Source of the DNA: an uncultured Eubacteriales bacterium
Lineage (GTDB): Bacteria; Bacillota; Clostridia; Oscillospirales; Oscillospiraceae
Direction of reading: 5' to 3'
NCBI GenBank assembly: GCA_900317905.1
Contig: ONIN01000009.1
Coordinates: 97,133 to 161,132, forward strand
Length of the DNA stretch: 64,000 bases
Numbering within the stretch: the first letter of the stretch is position 1; every line of letters starts with the position of its first letter. The notes beneath the pieces were generated by a model. It did no database searches. It was given only the letters and a program-made list of their open reading frames with translations, and had not been told where the DNA came from. A program made the position numbers and the translations under genes. Below, piece after piece: positions 3,103 through 29,819 of this stretch.

Positions 3103-3179
3103 GCGGCTGTAGCTCAGCTGGATAGAGTGCCAGACTCCGACTCTGGAGGTCGTGGGTTCGAATCCCGTCAGCCGTACCA
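3103..3179 (+). tRNA. tRNA-Arg (anticodon CCG)
   Basis: Cloverleaf readable by eye. Acceptor GCGGCTG/CAGCCGT, D arm GCTC-AGCTGGATA-GAGT, anticodon stem CCAGA/TCTGG with loop CTCCGAC, T arm GTGGG-TTCGAAT-CCCGT, encoded CCA. Several G:U pairs. Confidence 0.87.
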
Positions 3180-23683: not shown

Positions 23684-25186
23684 ATGAGCGAAGAAAAGAA
23701 CAACCAGACCCCCGCACCGGAGCAGGATCTCTCTGAGCTGCTGCAGATCCGCCGTGACAAGCTCAAGGCCCTGCAGGACGAGGGCCGCGACCCCTTCCAG
23801 CGCACCCGCTTTGTCAGAAGCGCCTGGTCCGAGGAGATCAAGGCTGATTTTGACGGCTTCAACGAAAAGACCGTCCAGGTGGCGGGCCGCATCATGTCCA
23901 AGAGAGGCATGGGCAAGGCCATCTTCTGCCACATCCAGGACGACAAGGGCCAGATCCAGCTCTACATCCGCAAGGACGCAGTCACCGAGCAGGAGTTTAT
24001 GGACTTCCGCAAGTACGACATCGGTGACATCATCGGCGTCAGCGGCTTCGTGTTCCAGACCAAGACCGGCGAGATCAGCGTCCACGTGGAATCCGTGGAG
24101 CTGCTGAGTAAGTCCCTGCGTCCCCTGCCGGAGAAGTTTCACGGCATGACCAGCACGGAGCTGAAGTACCGCCAGCGGTACGTGGATCTGATCATGAGCC
24201 GCGAGAGCCGCCGCAACTTCGAGATCCGCAGCGCCTTCATCCGCCACGTCCGCAAGTATCTGGACGACCACGGCTACATGGAGGTGGAGACCCCGGTGCT
24301 GAACACCATCTCCGGCGGCGCCACCGCGCGACCCTTCATCACCCACCACAACACTCTGGACATGGACATGTACCTGCGCATCGCCACCGAGCTGAACCTG
24401 AAGCGGCTCATCGTCGGCGGCATCGAGCGGGTTTATGAGATCGGCCGCATCTTCCGCAACGAGGGCATGGACACCAAGCACAACCCCGAGTTCACCACCG
24501 TGGAGCTCTACCAGTCCTACGCCGATTTCAACGATATGATGGATCTGTTTGAGGAGCTTCTGAGCTCCGCCGCCAAGGAGATCGTCGGCAGTTATCAGCT
24601 CCAGTGGCAGGATCACGACATCGATCTGACCCCCGGCTGGCCCAGACTCACCATGGCCGAGGCCGTGAAGAAGTACGTGGGCGTGGACTTCATGGAGATC
24701 ACCGACGACGCCGAGGCCGTGGCCGCTGCCAAGACTGCCGGCGTGGACATGGAAAAGGTGGAACCCACCTGGGGCCACGCGCTGTATGAGTGCTTCGACC
24801 AGAAGGTGGAAGAGCAGCTGATCCAGCCCGCCTTCATCACCATGCATCCGGTGGACGTCTCCCCCCTCGCCAAGCGGAGCCCCAAGGATCCCCGTCTCAC
24901 CGAGCGGTTCGAGCTCTTCATCTGCCACAGCGAGATGGGCAACGCCTTCTCGGAGCTCAACGACCCCATCGACCAGCGCCAGCGCTTCCAGAAGCAGGTG
25001 GAGCTGCGTGCCAAGGGCGACGATGAGGCCGGTATGATGGATGAGGACTTCATCAATGCGCTGGAGTACGGCATGCCCCCCACCGGCGGCCTGGGCATCG
25101 GCATCGACCGCTGCGTGATGCTCCTCTGCGGCGTGAACTCCATCCGCGACGTGATTCTGTTCCCGACGATGAAGCCGGAATCCTGA
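23684..25186 (+). CDS. lysS: lysine--tRNA ligase (class II)
   Basis: 500 aa; OB-fold N-terminus, class II motifs YRQRYVDL, FRNEG and GLGIGIDR. Confidence 0.95.
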   Translation: MSEEKNNQTPAPEQDLSELLQIRRDKLKALQDEGRDPFQRTRFVRSAWSEEIKADFDGFNEKTVQVAGRIMSKRGMGKAIFCHIQDDKGQIQLYIRKDAVTEQEFMDFRKYDIGDIIGVSGFVFQTKTGEISVHVESVELLSKSLRPLPEKFHGMTSTELKYRQRYVDLIMSRESRRNFEIRSAFIRHVRKYLDDHGYMEVETPVLNTISGGATARPFITHHNTLDMDMYLRIATELNLKRLIVGGIERVYEIGRIFRNEGMDTKHNPEFTTVELYQSYADFNDMMDLFEELLSSAAKEIVGSYQLQWQDHDIDLTPGWPRLTMAEAVKKYVGVDFMEITDDAEAVAAAKTAGVDMEKVEPTWGHALYECFDQKVEEQLIQPAFITMHPVDVSPLAKRSPKDPRLTERFELFICHSEMGNAFSELNDPIDQRQRFQKQVELRAKGDDEAGMMDEDFINALEYGMPPTGGLGIGIDRCVMLLCGVNSIRDVILFPTMKPES

Positions 25187-25222
25187 TCGGCAGATAAAAA
25201 CATATTGATTCTCAATGCTTTA

Positions 25223-25256
25223 CGGGCTCTCGCAAGTTTGCGAGAGCCCGTTTTTA
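25223..25256 (+). terminator. lysS intrinsic terminator
   Basis: 13-bp stem CGGGCTCTCGCAA / TTGCGAGAGCCCG followed by TTTTT. Confidence 0.85.
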
Positions 25257-25273
25257 CGACAGTTTTACGACAG
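25252..25273 (+). repeat. tandem 11-nt duplication TTTTACGACAG x2 at the lysS/integrase junction
   Basis: Two exact adjacent copies. The first copy starts inside the terminator T-run; the integrase stop codon is only 22 nt further on. Confidence 0.9.
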
Positions 25274-25294
25274 ATTTACTTCTGGTTTCACCGT

Positions 25295-26563
25295 TCAACT
25301 GATTCTGATTTTGCCTTCCAAATTCGCGAAGCTCTCCAATTTCTTTTCCTTGGTCGCTTCGTTATAGACGTCCATGGTGGTGGAGATGCTGGCGTGTCCC
25401 ATGATCTCCTGAATGACCTTCAGGTTGGTCTCATTTTCGCAGAACCTTGTACAGAATGTGTGCCGCAGATGGTGGGCACTGAAGTGCGGCAGCAGGAGCG
25501 GTTCCCTGTTCTCCTTTTCTGCCTTGGCTGTTTCCTCGGCGTTGTAGGCGTTGCTGATGCTGACGATCGCACGGTTCAGGCAATGAGGCGACATCGGGTT
25601 GCCAAACCGATTACTGAAGATGAAGCCCGTGTAGCCGTCGATCACAAAGTCGTTAAAGCCCATCATTCTCTGTCTGGCAAACTCCCGCCGCAGCGTGTCG
25701 CGGACGTCGTTCAGCATCGGGATCTGTCGGACGCCGGAGCGGGTCTTTGGCGTCGTGACGTGAAAGCGCATGGAGCCGTCGTCCTGCTGCCTGTAGATCA
25801 GAGCGTGGTCGATAGTGATGATATTTTCGTTGAAATTGCAGTCCTCCCAGCGGAGTCCCAGCGCCTCACCGATGCGGCAGCCGGTACCCAGCAGCAATGT
25901 GATCAGCGGCAGCCAGCGGGCGTATTTTTTGGAGCCCGCAACATAGCTGACGAAGGCCTCCTGCTCCGGTACGGTCAGAGCCTTGCGCTTGGTCTTTTCC
26001 CAACCAAATGATCGTTTGATCTCCGCGATGGCGCCATTGGTCGGGTTGATGCGGATCAGGCCGTCCCGCACAGCGTTCTCAAAAACCGGGTGCAGGATCG
26101 TCTGGAACGTCTCGATGCTGTTGGGCTTGAAACCGAGGTCGTGCATCAGGTGCACGTAGAAGCTTTTGATATCCGTGAAGTGGATGTTGGCGATCCGCTT
26201 CGTGCCCAGCTCGTAGCGGACAAATCGATCGTACATGTAAATGTAGTTGTTTCGTGTGGAGTCCTTCAGCTCCACCTTGCCAGAGATGTAGATTTCAAAG
26301 AGCTCGTTCAGCGTCGTGCGCTGGGATTCTACGGTGTCGATCCAGTCCTCCTTATCCAGGAGGATCTGTTTCTCCAGCTCCCGGAGAGATGTGCCTTTTT
26401 TCTTCCCCGGCGGCGTCCGATCCGTTTCCACCAGCCGCCAGCTGTAGACAGAGTGCCTGTCCCCTCTCCGGTCGGTGAACTTGTACTCGTAGCGTCCGTC
26501 GCTCCGCTGGAACTCGTTGTCCTTCAGATTCCGCCCCTTGTCGTCCTTGCGTTTCTCTGCCAT
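25295..26563 (-). CDS. int: tyrosine-type site-specific integrase (Tn916 Int-like)
   Basis: 422 aa. N-terminus RKDDKGRNLKDNEFQRSDGRYEYKF resembles the Int-Tn arm-binding domain. Full catalytic set present: GCRIGE (Arg), TPKTRSG (Lys), HHLRHTF (His-x-x-Arg), GHAS, DVYNE (Tyr). Confidence 0.92.
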   Translation of the reverse strand: MAEKRKDDKGRNLKDNEFQRSDGRYEYKFTDRRGDRHSVYSWRLVETDRTPPGKKKGTSLRELEKQILLDKEDWIDTVESQRTTLNELFEIYISGKVELKDSTRNNYIYMYDRFVRYELGTKRIANIHFTDIKSFYVHLMHDLGFKPNSIETFQTILHPVFENAVRDGLIRINPTNGAIAEIKRSFGWEKTKRKALTVPEQEAFVSYVAGSKKYARWLPLITLLLGTGCRIGEALGLRWEDCNFNENIITIDHALIYRQQDDGSMRFHVTTPKTRSGVRQIPMLNDVRDTLRREFARQRMMGFNDFVIDGYTGFIFSNRFGNPMSPHCLNRAIVSISNAYNAEETAKAEKENREPLLLPHFSAHHLRHTFCTRFCENETNLKVIQEIMGHASISTTMDVYNEATKEKKLESFANLEGKIRIS

Positions 26564-26573
26564 GGCAGCCCTC

Positions 26574-26915
26574 TCAGATGTCGTTGTACCGATCCAGGAA
26601 CTCTTCGAAGGCTTCCCGCTTGATCAGGGCCCGGCTGCCGTTGTGAAGCGCGTAGGGCGCGTCGGGGTTGTCTCTGAGGATCTCCCGCAGCTTGGTTTCG
26701 CCGATGGAAAAGTAATCCGAAGCATCCTTGATGCTCAGCGCGTACTTTTTCCACACCGGAACATTTTCGGTCTTCAGTCGCTCCGCGGTCTCCTGCATGA
26801 TCTCCTTGAGCTCCCGGAGGCTCCTCGGCATCACCACGTCCGCTGGATTGATTTGATGATACTCTCTGTAGTCATCACGTCGGTATGCAGTTCTGTTAAT
26901 CGTATTGTTTCTCAT
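26574..26915 (-). CDS. xis: excisionase (Tn916 Xis-like) with N-terminal extension
   Basis: The C-terminal 65 aa (VPVWKKYALSIKDASDYFSIGETKLREIL...NGSRALIKREAFEEFLD) parallel Tn916 Xis. The ATG at 26915 has AGGAGG 6 nt upstream, so the 113-aa form is kept. Confidence 0.85.
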   Translation of the reverse strand: MRNNTINRTAYRRDDYREYHQINPADVVMPRSLRELKEIMQETAERLKTENVPVWKKYALSIKDASDYFSIGETKLREILRDNPDAPYALHNGSRALIKREAFEEFLDRYNDI

Positions 26916-27045
26916 AAAAATCCTCCTAAAAATCTGATTTATTTCCGCTTGCCAGAAAGGAATTGGATGCGGTTATTGTTATGATATACTCTCCTCCGCC
27001 GGATGGGTTTTCGCCGATTTCATCACCTCCCTGATCATCCTGTTT

Positions 27046-27088
27046 AAAGCAGAAACTAGGCAAGCACCAATCAATTAAGCTTGCCTAG
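27046..27088 (-). terminator. hairpin terminator of the recombinase-like gene
   Basis: 10-bp stem CTAGGCAAGC (27056-27065) / GCTTGCCTAG (27079-27088). On the minus strand it is followed by TTTCTGCTTT. Confidence 0.6.
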
Positions 27089-27105
27089 TCTACTATGTAT
27101 GCGAT
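27071..27105. repeat. left copy of a ~36-bp imperfect inverted repeat
   Basis: TCAATTAAGCTTGCC-TAGTCT-ACTATGTATGCGAT. Matches the reverse complement of 29182..29218 in two collinear perfect blocks of 15 and 14 nt. Confidence 0.85.
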
Positions 27106-27138
27106 ACCCGGTGGAGGGTTAGAAGTATTCAGTTGTTG

Positions 27139-28068
27139 TCAAACCCGGAAAGCCTCTTTCCAGAGTTCGTAATCTCGCGCCATGTCCCTGGCCTGCGCCA
27201 CAAGATTATGCTGCATTGGTTCGGCTCCGCCGTTCCTGTGCATGATGATGCGCCTGACAATAGGACGGAAGCTTGGCTGCATTCCGATCTGTTCCCGCTG
27301 AAGCGTTCGGTAATACAAGCCGGAAAGCCGGATGGACGAGATGGTCGGCGGATTATCTTCGTCTGGCAAGGCGTTCAGTCTCACCCCAATGCGAGCTCTG
27401 AAACTCTTGATTGTCGTCTGGCCGTGAACGCCACGGAGCAGCGTGTCCCCCGGGACTCTCTCGCGAACGATCACATTTTTGTATTTTGGATGCTTATAAT
27501 TGAAATGGTCTTTCTCTACGAGCCACTCGAAATCTGGGATCGCTTCCCTGCAGATCTCAAACTCCTCGCCGCCGGTCTTGATAATCAGCCTCGATAAACT
27601 AACATCGGATGTTTTCACGTCGATCGCCTGATCCTCGAACATCCCAAAGTACGCCATCCAAAGATACGCGCGGTATATGATATGGATCGTACCCTCGCTG
27701 GTGTCGTCGAAGCGTTCGTTCAGGAGCTTCAGCATATGCTGCGGGTTCGCCAGCATCCGTTTCCGGTACGGTTCCAGATCCTTCATGTCGAGCTGATCCG
27801 TCAGGTCGTTCGCTCCTTCGACGCCTTGAGAAATACACCATCTGCAGTAGGTTCTTAACGCGGTTTGCGCTGTGACCCTTGATACGGTCTTGTTGCCGGA
27901 AACCAGCTTGAATACCCCTGTGAGTTCCTCCAGAGTCATTTGGCAAATATCCTTCGAAGCCGCCTCCTCTAACGGCTCTGTCCTTTCAAATAGCCACGTT
28001 AACCACCGCCGTCTGGAATCTTTGTCTTCCAGTTCTATGTACTGGAATTTTAAGGATTCGTTGTACAT
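27139..28068 (-). CDS. tyrosine-recombinase-fold protein with degenerate active site (MrpR/YopR-like repressor candidate)
   Basis: Start moved to MYNESLKF (GAGGTG 5 nt upstream), because the track extension to 28128 runs through its own promoter. It has a core-binding-like N-terminus and a catalytic-domain-like C-terminus. However, the Arg-I position reads YFGMFEDQ and the HxxR position reads SSIRLSG. Confidence 0.65.
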   Translation of the reverse strand: MYNESLKFQYIELEDKDSRRRWLTWLFERTEPLEEAASKDICQMTLEELTGVFKLVSGNKTVSRVTAQTALRTYCRWCISQGVEGANDLTDQLDMKDLEPYRKRMLANPQHMLKLLNERFDDTSEGTIHIIYRAYLWMAYFGMFEDQAIDVKTSDVSLSRLIIKTGGEEFEICREAIPDFEWLVEKDHFNYKHPKYKNVIVRERVPGDTLLRGVHGQTTIKSFRARIGVRLNALPDEDNPPTISSIRLSGLYYRTLQREQIGMQPSFRPIVRRIIMHRNGGAEPMQHNLVAQARDMARDYELWKEAFRV

Positions 28069-28099
28069 GGTGGCACCTCGTTTCCTAGCATCTGGACAC

Positions 28100-28132
28100 A
28101 TTATAGCATACGGCATCCAACTTGTCAAGTTG
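28100..28132 (-). promoter_or_regulatory. perfect consensus promoter TTGACA-17-TATAAT with overlapping palindromic operator
   Basis: Minus strand: -35 at 28123-28128, -10 at 28100-28105. The palindrome CAACTTG-T-CAAGTTG (28118-28132) covers the -35 box. Confidence 0.75.
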
Positions 28133-28500
28133 TTTTTTCAGTCCTTTTTAAGAAAAATTTATGGTGCGTTTATAGAAATATGCCCTTTGTTCAGTTAGTA
28201 GTTCTCGTACGTATCACAGCAGATGACACCGCCGAGCTCAGGATATTTCCTCCTTTGGAGTCATTTCGGTATTCCCCCTCTAAACAACCTCAGAAACACC
28301 AGCACAGCGAAATCTGAGAATATCATTGAAATTTAAGGAATTTTTGATCGACAGGTTGCCAAAAGATAGCTTGTTATTTCTATCAGAATTGTCGCTCAAG
28401 TAGCTGGAAATCATCACAAAGCTCTTTGGTTCCACGAAATATCACTAAAATCTATGGCTTCACAAAACATCCTCAGATTAAGAGAACTGCAGTAACGCTC

Positions 28501-28529
28501 TTGACATTCGGAATTAATTCTGCTATTAT
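28501..28529 (+). promoter_or_regulatory. near-consensus promoter TTGACA-17-TATTAT
   Basis: TTGACA at 28501-28506, TATTAT at 28524-28529. The spacer contains the 10-bp palindrome GAATTAATTC (28511-28520). No credible ORF follows. Confidence 0.7.
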
Positions 28530-28639
28530 TTCATAGTGTATTTACAGTCCTCTTTTCGGCGCTGCAATCCATGTCGAATCTTTTCGCTGGCAAGTCTGCT
28601 GACCATGTGATCGGCATCTGAAAATTCTAAAAGCCGTAT

Positions 28640-28708
28640 GACCCCCGCACAGGCCGCGCAAGTGGCATATAGAGGGAGACCCCCGCAACCCGGCAGCCCG
28701 GCATATAG
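28640..28708 (+). repeat. two tandem sub-repeats GACCCCCGCA-(small hairpin)-GGCATATAG
   Basis: Copy A is 28640-28672 (internal CCGC-GCAA-GTGG hairpin). Copy B is 28678-28708 (internal CCGG-CAGC-CCGG). Confidence 0.8.
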
Positions 28709-28780
28709 TACGAAAGGATGAAACAGAGAACATTAGTTATTTCTCCATATTAAAAACCATATCAATTGCTAAGTGAATGC

Positions 28781-29093
28781 TGTAACAGCCGTACTTATGG
28801 AACCTTGTCTGTGAGGTGTCCGTCGCTGTGCGACTCACATCCAAGGTTGGTTGCAGACTATACTAGTAATGAGGGGGAACGGAAATCATCCTTGATGAAA
28901 AGACATTGTAACTGTATAACGATACTTATGGCAGACTTGTCTGCGAGGCATCGCATCCAAGTCTGGTTGCCTGCTGTGCTTCGTTGGCAATAATCTTGAT
29001 ACACACAATTTGTAAAGGTCCTCATCGTACTTATTGCACCTCGTCTGCGAAGTGTCCGTCACTTCGTGACTCGCATCCGAGGAAGATTGTAAA
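28781..29093 (+). repeat. three tandem ~80-125-nt structured units, each opening with TGTAA(C/A)
   Basis: Units start at 28781, 28907 and 29011, with a closing TGTAAA at 29088. Shared blocks are TACTTAT(G/T)G, TCTG(T/C)GA(G/A)G and TC(A/G)CATCC. The outer helices differ in sequence but stay complementary. Confidence 0.85.
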
Positions 29094-29181
29094 CGATTTA
29101 TTAATAATTGAAAATAGCCTTGCATTTTTGAATCTGTACTTTTAAAATGAAATCAAACAACATATCGTATCCCTGTACGTA

Positions 29182-29218
29182 ATCGCATACATAGTTGAAT
29201 TACGGCAAGCTTAATTGA
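29182..29218. repeat. right copy of the ~36-bp imperfect inverted repeat
   Basis: ATCGCATACATAGT-TGAATTAC-GGCAAGCTTAATTGA. Similarity to the left copy stops at 29219, where the sequence becomes GC-rich. Confidence 0.85.
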
Positions 29219-29819
29219 GTGCAGTGATAGATCTTATCTCAGGAGTGAAAAGGGCCTCATGGCCATTGCCCTCTATTTGGCCTGCTCCGCTGTCTGCGGC
29301 GGCATCTCCACGGTGATCGTGCTGCCCTGGTTCAAAGCCACCTACGACAACGGCGAATACATGTACATGCTGGTCTGGGGCATGGCCCTGGTGGGCAGAG
29401 CCCTGGGCGGGCTGGTGCATTATCGGGTCAAAATTCCCCCGGAGCACCGGTATCAGATCGCCCTCGCGGTGTACATTGTGATCTCGATTCTGGAGGGCGT
29501 CTATCTCTTCACGCCGATCCCCGTGATGATGGTCATGTGCTTCCTCGTGGGCGTCGGCGGCATCACAAGCTATACCATCCGCATCTCCGCCACCCAGAGC
29601 TATGTGCCTGATGAACGAAAGGGACGCTTCAACGGTGCCTTCAATATGCTCTCCACCGCCGGTGCCCTGGTTGGTGAAGTGCTGGCGGGCTCGCTGACAC
29701 TCATTATGTCGGAGCGTGTGGTGCTGCTGGTGGCCATGCTGCTCTGTGCGCTGGCCGCGGTGGTGTTCATCGGCGGAGGAAAAGAGCACGTGTCGTATAT
29801 TTACAACAGGACTCAATAA
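29199..29819 (+). pseudogene. MFS transporter, C-terminal half only (5'-truncated)
   Basis: The frame is open from 29199 and the ORF runs 29259..29819 (186 aa, about 6 TM). It carries an MFS second-half loop motif, PDERKGRFNGAFNM. There is no N-terminal six-helix half and no RBS. Confidence 0.6.

Follow-up and report, generated by a model that had tools for sequence, protein, structure and literature searches.

The window analysed here (the whole 64-kb stretch of DNA) carries, beside lysS, an integrase-linked group of genes and then three hairpin units that stand before a truncated transporter gene. The features of this locus are given below, with related loci referred to by L numbers.

25295-26563, minus strand: Tn916-type tyrosine integrase of 422 aa (Pfam Phage_integrase and Integrase_DNA), at the prophage end adjoining lysS
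26574-26915, minus strand: Tn916-Xis-type excisionase of 113 aa (Pfam PF09035, E 2.6e-19)
27055-28158, minus strand: self-contained MrpR/YopR-like repressor module, with promoter (28128-28100, 12/12 consensus), ORF (28068-27139, 309 aa) and intrinsic terminator (27055-27088)
28319-28338 and 28438-28457, no strand assigned: 20-nt direct repeats AATATCAYTRAAATYTAWGG (repeat family D4), between the divergent promoters
28501-28529, plus strand: promoter TTGACA-17-TATTAT, homologous to the small-recombinase gene promoter of phage contigs (alignment A6)
28571 to about 28625, plus strand: 5' remnant of the recombinase ORF, with the ATG kept, the SD destroyed and the frame shifted by a 2-nt deletion
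28640-28710, plus strand: duplicated GACCCCCGCA...GGCATATAG segment (repeat D10), which fills the deleted ORF and occurs in L349 too
28762-28776, plus strand: 3' remnant of the recombinase ORF (..SIAK, stop TGA at 28774-28776; alignment A7)
28787-28862, plus strand: hairpin unit 1, long type (covariance-model match of 82.7 bits)
28918-28978, plus strand: hairpin unit 2, short type with a GGCA loop (covariance-model match of 53.7 bits; blastn)
29023-29098, plus strand: hairpin unit 3, long type (covariance-model match of 82.5 bits; alignment A7)
29120-29148, plus strand: AT-rich stretch with promoter-like TTGCAT-17-TAAAAT, invariant in the window, L255, L256 and L249
29155-29234, plus strand: conserved segment of about 80 nt, with a repeated element of 40 nt (29182-29221) and, of a strong intrinsic terminator, only the 5' half; phage homology ends at 29234
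29259-29819, plus strand: truncated C-terminal half of a host MFS transporter (Pfam MFS_1 profile positions 208-346 of 347)

The prophage arm and the leader

A preliminary description of this DNA had spoken of an integrase-linked island. The integrase is indeed present, and its counterpart in L349 is 97% identical and occupies the same lysS-flanked site; a truncated SPbeta-like prophage is nevertheless the better description, and the comparison of related loci shows the island to be the left arm of such a prophage, integrated beside lysS. L349, a 92%-identical relative, holds a fuller prophage at this site, with three units, an intact terminator and then a yonV-like gene. The window is collinear with the phage locus from 28495 to 29234, the recombinase ORF being deleted, and position 29234 is a deletion endpoint at which the locus is cut inside the terminator. 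The complete terminator (-34.7 kcal/mol, z = -3.46) is found in L255, L249 and L349; in the phage locus about 115 nt lie between the AT-rich promoter-like box, whose L255 counterpart scores 9/12, and this strong terminator. Two other descriptions of the island were considered and set aside. A PICI-like satellite of 4 kb was dropped, as L349 runs on from the same integration site into phage genes, and an invertible or transposable segment bounded by the 40-nt inverted repeat (27068-27105/29182-29221) was rejected because the element precedes a terminator in every phage contig; the homology of the mrpR module, which stops precisely at 28158 and 27055, also counts against it.

The repressor ORF matches PF22822 (MrpR_N_CB, E 2e-14), and its family profile matches the PDB YopR/MrpR entries 8A0A and 8BJV, and 9RD5 (E 9e-10 to 5e-7); the protein thus has both the domain and the full-length similarity to YopR structures that mark the MrpR/YopR-like family. 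Its relatives number about 1000 representatives of roughly 310-320 aa; tblastn against cultured phages gave no match. The module is 84-85% identical to phage contigs L001-L005 over exactly 27055-28158 and is transcribed divergently from the promoter at 28501-28529, and the repeats at 28319-28457 are, by their position, putative operators. A repressor type so far known from Bacillus phages is now linked to prophages of high-G+C gut Clostridia.

The promoter at 28501-28529 had been read as the dedicated promoter of a non-coding RNA gene of about 0.6 kb. What was seen in the letters stands: the promoter is near-consensus (11/12 matches, with an extended-10 TG), and no credible ORF follows it; 28530-29150 holds only ORFs of 53-79 codons in mixed frames and strands, with no Pfam match among them. 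The interpretation does not stand—promoter, 5' UTR, start codon, last codons and stop are the remains of a gene for a tyrosine recombinase, which in intact relatives has 265 aa and most of whose ORF is missing from the window. The 5' remnant aligns with L255, L256 and L249 (blastn E 4e-5). By these alignments, the "leader" is the recombinase promoter and 5' UTR joined to the first codons and to the last codons and stop, and not a designed RNA leader. A decayed gene had been named in advance as an outcome that would overturn the RNA proposal; this holds for the leader but not for the hairpin units, which are genuinely non-coding because they are located 3' of the recombinase stop codon in intact relatives. 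A signature of "strong promoter plus non-coding RNA" may, as this case illustrates, be the shell of a deleted gene.

Searches of the region with blastx and tblastx against the collected proteins were negative save for the recombinase ends, and gave no sign of a decayed MrpR-like paralogue; small peptides starting from an ATG within TACTTATGG were likewise rejected, for lack of both an SD and conservation. It had also been suggested that leader segment 28591-28599 competes for the 5' arm of unit 2. The two are complementary over 9 nt (28931-28939 in the unit), yet a complementarity of at least 9 nt arises in 61 of 300 leader shuffles, so it is at chance level, and the leader segment is in part inherited recombinase coding sequence.

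Hairpin units, covariation and homologous loci

The units form a discrete module of about 60-77 nt. After a 5' block (G/C)(T/A)ACTTATGG come an outer helix (7-8 bp) and an inner helix (5-6 bp), separated by a conserved 2x2 mismatch of pyrimidines; the apex is either a 4-nt loop or an insert of about 20 nt that contains a 5-bp hairpin of its own, and GRTTGYARAC forms the 3' block. The arms contain the invariant sequences T(T/C)GTCT and A(T/G)CC(A/G)A. Unit 1 has the 5' block GTACTTATGG and the basal (outer) helix AACCTTG/CAAGGTT, followed by a TC/TC internal loop, the inner helix TGTGAG/CTCACA and an apex made of the bulge GTGTCC and the hairpin GTCGC-TGT-GCGAC. The basal helix is CAGACTTG/CAAGTCTG in unit 2 and CCTCG/CGAGG in unit 3, where it is cut to 5 bp relative to the orthologues in L256 and L349. 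The core of unit 2 is 96% identical to unit B of L255/L249, with unlike flanks.

Three tandem stem-loop units had been proposed from the letters alone, and both a pattern search compared with shuffles and a covariance model agree. The pattern GTCTGYGA-N(4-30)-TCRCATCC has exactly three matches in the 64-kb window (28807, 28939 and 29043), where shuffles lead one to expect 0.00, and the covariance model run over the same window returned the three units and no other match. The details first reported are also borne out: TGTAA(C/A) marks lie at 28781, 28907, 29011 and 29088, units 1 and 3 have the apical insert GTGTCCGTC in common, and a T-to-C change in the inner helix is matched by A-to-G. The block TACTTATKG recurs at 28792, 28923 and 29028, and a repeat search found two pairs of inverted arms independently (28801-28815/28834-28848 and 28932-28946/28951-28965). 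The units are spaced 131 and 105 nt apart with 60-76% identity between them, and Tandem Repeats Finder reported no array for them in the window. The region has a G+C content of 40-47% (about 60% in the flanks), and its plus-strand fold, taken as a whole, is unremarkable (z = -1.45).

Covariation was measured over 13 distinct units with 194 stem cells, with 500 shuffles and slid partners as controls. Cells are paired in 94.8% of cases; the figure for shuffles is 81%, and sliding the partners lowers it to 24-38%. Two-sided changes are present in 33 cells, at 10 pairs, where shuffles give 10.9 +/- 2.3 and never reach 33, and neither a one-sided change nor a G-U pair occurs among the 194. RNAalifold independently yields the same two helices around the 2x2 internal loop. 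Unit 1 of the window and its orthologue L256_1 differ by three fully compensated transitions against a background identity of about 83%. Every one of the 13 units has the T-C mismatch unchanged; pairing at the second loop position is confined to the two copies of unit C. The helices are maintained in homologous units of other contigs, with covariation far above the controls, in keeping with the earlier proposal that pairing rather than sequence is selected. Since the stems change in sequence yet remain complementary, these comparisons indicate a folded single-stranded nucleic acid under selection.

As to which strand folds, the minus strand does so slightly better, via tandem G-A pairs, and one L349 unit has on its plus strand an A-C mismatch that, read on the minus strand, would be a G-U pair. 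In L323/L324, in the same place after the recombinase, a distant unit has a U-G pair that is possible only on the plus strand. An absence of G-U pairs and one-sided changes is unusual for RNA helices and a better fit to pairing at the DNA level, and neither GGCA nor GGCG, the loop sequences, is among the canonical stable tetraloops of RNA.

Five other metagenomic contigs contain homologous units, making a narrow family of six loci with no member in the IMG/VR, phage and plasmid collections. A blastn search with 28130-29260 against plasmid and phage collections gave no match; the loose pattern GTCTGYGA-N-TCRCATCC returned 240 loci in collection scans, all chance matches by nhmmer, and tighter patterns found one true metagenomic homologue (L249) and none in IMG/VR. 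Among 90 SPbeta-like phage loci, the covariance model found only the one marginal unit in L323/L324. The units lie directly 3' of the recombinase stop in L249, L255, L256 and L257, beginning 18-30 nt past it with no terminator between, and always have the orientation of the upstream promoter. In intact SPbeta-like gut-phage contigs they occupy the interval between the recombinase stop and the strong terminator that precedes a yonV-like gene; the order in L255, L249 and L349 is promoter, recombinase (deleted in the window/L349 lineage), units, strong terminator and next gene, and in L255 no sigma-70-like site of at least 10/12 is present between the terminator and the next gene. The related phage L258 has its yonV-like gene 19 nt after the recombinase and no units, so the module is dispensable.

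The arrays read A-B in L255/L249, 1-2 in L256, 1-B-2-like in the window and A'-chimera-2 in L349. They are tandem and of variable copy number (2-3, plus one unit beyond the terminator), and they differ among phages with 98-100% identical recombinases, the breakpoints falling at unit edges; the chimeric unit of L349 joins the 5' arm of one type to the 3' arm of another, which leaves a T-C mismatch. Unit C of L349 shows decay, as does the window's unit 3 in its outer helix. The adjacent recombinase of 265 aa, co-directional with the array, has the Phage_integrase catalytic domain as its sole domain match and belongs to a widespread family of phage tyrosine recombinases of about 270 aa with more than 2,500 clusters in gut metagenomes; relatives found by tblastn in cultured phages are only 31-35% identical.

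Possible roles of the units

We lean towards RNA hairpins that act in cis, as a module of the early transcript, a reading to which we give a little less than even odds. The folded molecule would be the plus-strand early transcript, and the units would act on it in cis, either as protein- or RNAP-binding hairpins governing read-through of the terminator (a logic like that of nut and put) or as elements of the recombinase 3' UTR that serve its processing or stability. Action in cis is proposed because the units are co-oriented with the promoter and closely follow the stop codon with no intervening terminator, and because a strong intrinsic terminator stands downstream with no good sigma-70 promoter before the next gene. 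In the window itself the units would be a relic, with no downstream operon remaining to control. We counted against RNA the lack of G-U pairs and one-sided changes, the non-canonical loops, the better minus-strand fold and the A-C mismatch in L349; the narrowness of the family (six loci) and the absence of units from L258 were counted in the same way. If the molecule is RNA, the units would be a new class of cis-acting element in the early operon of very abundant uncultured SPbeta-like gut phages—one within reach of experiment, since it is about 60-77 nt long and its compensatory mutations are clear enough to be copied.

The main alternative, though an unlikely one, is that the units are folded-DNA sites (single-stranded hairpins or cruciforms) for the adjacent small tyrosine recombinase, recognised by shape as attC sites are. 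This would account for the strictly Watson-Crick pairing, with no G-T pair, for the two short helices flanking a conserved unpaired spacer with a variable terminus of 4 or about 20 nt, for the position of the units, immediately 3' of the recombinase gene wherever a contig has both, and for the reshuffling of arrays between close relatives, chimeric unit included. Ordinary homologous recombination among diverged tandem repeats, however, explains the mosaics equally well; a recombinase dimer would need a longer stem than the roughly 15 bp available, the "cassettes" measure just 105-131 bp and contain no ORF, RYYYAAC/GTTRRRY core sites are absent, and the recombinase is co-directional with the array and not IntI-like. 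Moreover, the window/L349 lineage lost the recombinase before its 8% divergence, yet the stems are still largely intact. That recombinases of about 270 aa might use the hairpins to insert, delete or shuffle short non-coding cassettes, as an integron-like system of SPbeta-like gut phages, we hold to be improbable; with a DNA role, structure-specific tyrosine recombination would reach further than integrons and CTX-type phages.

Duplex recognition, with the units as palindromic binding sites for the MrpR/YopR-like repressor (an SPBRE analogue) or another phage DNA-binding protein, seems very unlikely. The repressor gene lies some 0.7 kb away in the window and L349, the arms contain invariant sequences, and in SPbeta MrpR recognises several intergenic copies of a 15-bp repeat (PMC10516654); but outer arms that differ within one genome and stay complementary are not what a single duplex-reading protein would select, and the distance from arm to arm varies from 4 to about 20 bp. 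Furthermore, the units of L255, L256 and L249 adjoin a recombinase on short contigs with no mrpR-like gene, L001-L005 have the gene and no units, and the repeats at 28319-28457 between the divergent promoters make better operator candidates. A still less credible reading makes the units functionless tandem quasi-palindromes, whose arms would stay complementary through intrastrand template switching during replication and which would survive as junk in a hypervariable intergenic spot. Changes that run only from one Watson-Crick pair to another are as expected of template switching, and the module is missing from most related phages, unstable in copy number and decaying in L349 unit C and window unit 3; the same process should, however, erase the T-C mismatch, which is invariant, and the single-stranded 5' and 3' blocks are conserved and the orientation fixed relative to promoter and terminator. 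An independent ornate or tandem-repeat RNA gene of about 0.6 kb, with its own strong promoter, is the reading we find hardest to credit: a strong promoter with no ORF after it and structured repeats speak for it, but promoter and leader are what is left of a protein-coding gene, the repeats are non-identical and irregularly spaced, the plus-strand fold of the whole region is not unusual, and neither an Rfam match nor a toxin-like ORF is present. Homologues with an intact recombinase ORF have already largely refuted it.

Comparison with known systems

Membership of a known RNA family was judged at the gathering threshold of Rfam 15, covering ROOL, GOLLD, raiA, STAXI, the RAGATH motifs and ribozymes. 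The whole window gave only a tRNA, and 28300-29300 searched at E <= 10 gave only COG2908, on the minus strand, at 19.5 bits against a threshold of 58.7; the homologous loci L249, L255 and L256 had no match over the units. The units therefore match no known family, and the ROOL/GOLLD class once suggested for them is rejected. Type III antitoxin RNAs (ToxI), suggested at the same time and likewise rejected, are also tandem non-coding repeats behind a promoter on mobile elements, but they are near-identical repeats of about 34-36 nt directly before a ToxN-type toxin gene, and the units show none of these traits: near-identical head-to-tail repeats of about 34-45 nt are lacking, the units being dissimilar and 105-131 nt apart, and no ToxN/AbiQ-type endoribonuclease gene lies downstream, where the next gene is the truncated MFS transporter.

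REP/BIME elements resemble the units in being imperfect palindromes whose mismatch and 5' flank are conserved, and in forming clusters, of varying copy number, at transcribed 3' UTR or intergenic positions. REPs, however, are dispersed genome-wide with RAYT (HUH) transposases, whereas within the 64 kb the units are confined to a single locus and have no HUH-type gene among their neighbours. Like the SPBRE of SPbeta, the units are a non-coding repeated element of an SPbeta-like phage, located where lysogeny is controlled, and the neighbouring gene here is of the same family as MrpR (YopR), a master repressor with a tyrosine-recombinase fold. SPBRE copies, in contrast, are 15-bp duplex motifs dispersed across the phage and not hairpins of 60-77 nt with covarying stems, and the units track the small recombinase, not the repressor.

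Integron attC sites are closer in form: structure is conserved rather than sequence, two short helices enclose an unpaired central spacer below a variable terminal structure, and the array lies next to a tyrosine recombinase and varies in content among close relatives. The units have this fold, but they have shorter stems, no R''/R' core motifs or extrahelical-base pattern and no ORF cassettes; RYYYAAC...GTTRRRY core sites are absent, with no GTTRRRY at the 3' foot of the basal helices. Nor is their recombinase, co-directional with the array, of the IntI type, and the integrase of the window scores 49.8 bits against an integrase_gron cut-off of 265.

The nut sites of lambda (boxA plus boxB) and the put sites of HK022 share no sequence or structural similarity with the units, which differ from them as tandem, variable copies without G-U pairs; no N-like or Q-like factor was identified for the units. 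The likeness lies in placement and design. Both sets of elements belong to an early transcript divergent from the repressor gene, in which the first early gene precedes them and a strong intrinsic terminator follows (a location that the units have in L255, L249 and L349); in each, a hairpin that covaries between copies is coupled with a single-stranded block that is conserved.

Anatomy and covariation of the hairpin units

Three hairpins (28787-28862, 28918-28978 and 29023-29098) have in common the block TACTTAT(G/T)G (28792, 28923 and 29028), and the core GTCTGYGA...TCRCATCC finds three matches in the 64-kb window, all at this locus, with 0.00 expected from shuffles. The inverted arms were found independently by a repeat finder; Tandem Repeats Finder reported no regular array at the units, because they lie 131 and 105 nt apart and are 60-76% alike. 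The unit features listed in the preliminary description all lie where it had placed them. The parts of a unit are:

5' block, (G/C)(T/A)ACTTATGG
outer helix of 7-8 bp
internal loop, TC opposite TC, with an invariant T-C mismatch
inner helix, TGYGA/TCRCA or a variant
apex, either a 4-nt loop (GGCA/GGCG) or a ~20-nt insert
the ~20-nt insert, a 6-7-nt bulge, mostly (A/G/C)G(T/C)GTCC, plus a 5-bp hairpin with a 3-nt loop
3' block, GRTTGYARAC

Covariation was measured over 13 distinct units, with 194 stem cells in 18 pairs. Pairing holds in 94.8% of these cells versus 81% in column shuffles, and drops to 24-38% once the partners are offset by 1-3 columns. Both sides have changed in 10 of the 18 pairs; 33 cells are changed on both sides versus 10.9 ± 2.3 in shuffles, a count reached by 0 of 500. 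One-sided variation is absent from every pair, so the 13 units are entirely free of G-U pairs. With the alignment as its sole input, RNAalifold returned the same two helices and 2x2 loop, and two orthologues—unit 1 of the window and the first unit of L256, a contig carrying both recombinase and units—differ by three fully compensated transitions at ~83% background identity. Unit pairing is clearly under selection, or actively restored; the earlier claim that pairing rather than sequence is kept is borne out by covariation far beyond the shuffle controls.

At gathering thresholds, Rfam 15 matched only a tRNA gene in the window (3103-3176, + strand); at E <= 10 the 1-kb region gave one match, COG2908, at 19.5 bits versus a threshold of 58.7, and no match fell over the units at homologous loci. 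Rfam family membership was rejected since no match at the units reached threshold; the preliminary description had matched them to neither type III antitoxins nor ROOL/GOLLD-type RNAs.

A prophage arm with a decayed recombinase gene

The unit module is phage-borne, and in the window it is a relic. Its surroundings are as follows:

23684-25186, + strand, lysS
25295-26563, - strand, Tn916-type integrase
26574-26915, - strand, Tn916-Xis excisionase
27139-28068, - strand, 309-aa protein with an MrpR_N_CB domain
between the 309-aa gene and the MFS gene, ~1.1 kb of non-coding DNA holding the units
28501-28529, + strand, near-consensus sigma-70 promoter, TTGACA-17-TATTAT with upstream TG
28640-28710, duplicated GC-rich segment GACCCCCGCA..GGCATATAG in place of the deleted recombinase ORF
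29259-29819, + strand, MFS transporter gene, C-terminal half only

The preliminary description proposed a promoter dedicated to a non-coding RNA gene. The promoter is there, and the sole ORFs from it to 29150 are of 53-79 codons, on both strands and in differing frames, none with a Pfam match. By alignment to three phage contigs (L255, L256 and L249), however, window 28495-28625 corresponds to the start of the recombinase gene (its promoter, 5' UTR and opening ~17 codons), and 28762-28776 to its last codons and stop codon; ~600 nt of the ORF are gone. The ATG at 28571 is retained, the Shine-Dalgarno sequence is lost and a 2-nt deletion breaks the frame. Since both ends of the gene align, the promoter is a protein-gene relic, and promoter and leader together are the remains of the recombinase gene; on these alignments, a decayed gene accounts for this part of the original claim. 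The proposed 9-nt complementarity of the leader (28591-28599) to unit 2 is present, but at chance level, being equalled by 61 of 300 shuffled leaders. The GC-rich duplicated segment recurs, with a third partial copy, in L349, a 92%-identical relative (L349:2860-2960, - strand).

The unit region has a G+C content of 40-47% versus ~60% in its flanks. Rightward, homology to the phage loci runs through an AT-rich invariant box (29120-29148) and ~80 nt more; its end at 29234 splits a terminator hairpin that L255, L249 and L349 have in full. The island is therefore a prophage's left arm, and the deletion of the rest also removed the host MFS gene's 5' half. The same stretch (window 29120-29234, L255:2780-2925) holds a promoter-like TTGCA(A/T)-17-TAAAAT, then ~115 nt and a very strong terminator; it folds at -34.7 kcal/mol in L255 (z = -3.46) and could be a small phage RNA gene, cut in the window at 29234. 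A ~40-nt element, ATCGCATACATAGT..GGCAAGCTTAATTGA, occurs at 27068-27105 and 29182-29221 in opposite orientations, and at L001:2982-3019, L249:478-517 and L255:2844-2880; in every phage contig it lies immediately 5' of an intrinsic terminator, and is thus a 3'-end sequence common to two transcription units. At the left edge (25222-25285), two direct repeats GACAG(T/A)TTTAC (25259-25280) and then TTTACTTCTGG come after the lysS terminator hairpin (25222-25251), adjoining the integrase stop—these repeats and TTTACTTCTGG are possible arm-type or attachment-site sequences for the prophage.

About 1,000 representative clusters (~310-320 aa) make up the family of the 309-aa protein, and the family profile matches the solved structures 8A0A and 8BJV (SPbeta YopR/MrpR) and 9RD5. 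MrpR is the SPbeta master repressor; it binds the repeated element SPBRE and has a tyrosine-recombinase fold without recombinase activity (PMC10516654). With its own promoter (28128-28100, - strand, 12/12 consensus) and terminator, the repressor gene is a self-contained 1.1-kb module (28158..27055, - strand), 84-85% identical to phage contigs L001-L005, where its neighbours are wholly different, a cI-like/S24 and 106-aa gene pair on one side and an ERF recombinase gene on the other. Cultured-phage records contained no family member at E <= 1e-5. Two 20-nt direct repeats, AATATCATTGAAATTTAAGG (28319-28338) and AATATCACTAAAATCTATGG (28438-28457), spaced 119 bp apart in the interval from the repressor promoter to the divergent early promoter, are candidate operators.

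Homologous loci and array turnover

A tighter unit pattern found one true metagenomic homologue, L249, and looser patterns gave chance matches only. The L249 units lie directly 3' of the stop codon of a 265-aa tyrosine recombinase, a layout shared by L255-L257, which were reached via the recombinase protein. This recombinase family is very large (>2,500 clusters at about 65-70% identity) and sits beside a yonV-like gene in 60-130-kb SPbeta-like gut-phage contigs. L349, reached via the integrase, is 92% identical to window 25091-28708 and uses the same lysS integration site; it continues with a different three-unit array, the complete terminator and a yonV-like gene. Plasmid and cultured-phage collections contained no DNA similar to the region. 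Arrays differ even among contigs with recombinases 98-100% identical or flanks 92% identical:

A-B, in L255 and L249
1-2, in L256
1-B-2-like, in the window
A'-chimera-2, in L349

L255 and L249 have an additional unit, C, past the terminator, and L349 has a decayed version of it. Window unit 2 and L255 unit B are 96% identical over exactly the 5' block and hairpin, with unrelated flanks; the second L349 unit joins a type A 5' arm to a type 1 3' arm and flank, with a T-C mismatch as the result.

Most related phages lack the module: some have 19 nt between the recombinase and the start of the yonV-like gene, many others carry a different conserved non-coding arrangement there, and a unit at this position, marginal and distant, occurs only in L323/L324. 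The units are a new, narrowly distributed hairpin module, present at six loci in the searchable data.

The alternative arrangement occurs at ~60 of 80 SPbeta-like loci (L265-L344, IMG/VR), within the first 150-200 nt past the stop of a ~270-aa recombinase (e.g., L271:2600-2750; L268:4778-4930), and has no Rfam match. It is made up of a box TGCACCTTGA(C/A)AA, a covarying hairpin GGACAC-N5-GTGTCC (one G-U variant), a short CCTTGTG..CACAAGG hairpin with a T-run behind it, and lastly CTTATAAAG. These phages also encode RAGATH-4 and RAGATH-16 RNAs ~2 kb ahead of the recombinase gene (L268:1647-1777 and 1953-2024, L311:1798-1868, all - strand; 150, 95.6 and 86 bits, above gathering thresholds), a phage region that is rich in structured RNAs. 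In many viral contigs (IMG/VR L269-L299 and others) the recombinase starts 1.6-1.9 kb from a contig end, as if the genome opened, or a repeat broke the assembly, at a fixed distance upstream; SPbeta packaging starts between yonR and yonP (preprint 10.1101/2021.11.22.469490).

Transcript hairpins or DNA hairpins

Selection acts on a folded single strand. We tentatively favour, at somewhat under an even chance, cis-acting hairpins in an early + strand transcript. They would either control read-through of the terminator between the recombinase and the yonV-like operon, or serve the recombinase 3' UTR in transcript processing or stability. Unit orientation is fixed relative to the upstream promoter and the strong downstream terminator. 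The RNA reading is also favoured because no terminator separates the recombinase stop from the units, the stretch from the L255 terminator to the next gene has no sigma-70-like site of at least 10/12, the layout resembles lambda-type early regions (a repressor gene divergent from the early promoter), and the distant L323 unit has a U-G pair on the + strand only. Against it, G-U pairs are wholly absent, the loops differ from the canonical stable RNA tetraloops, the minus strand folds slightly better, and one L349 unit has an A-C mismatch where the minus strand would have a G-U pair.

Strictly Watson-Crick covariation and cassette-like shuffling of arrays are what the main rival would account for, namely DNA-level hairpins tied to the adjacent recombinase with an attC-like logic; we consider it unlikely, as the stems are short, core motifs and ORFs are absent, and the stems survive in a lineage now devoid of the recombinase. 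Less weight still goes to duplex operators, to neutral quasi-palindromes and to an autonomous non-coding RNA gene.

The unit covariation is solid, yet the window copy is a relic; the context worth following is SPbeta-like gut phages with an MrpR-type repressor and a very abundant small recombinase. Type III antitoxins, raised in the preliminary description, are rejected along with integron attC arrays and REP/BIME elements, because in each case defining features were tested for and not found here. The units are nonetheless like nut/put elements in position and like attC sites in architecture.
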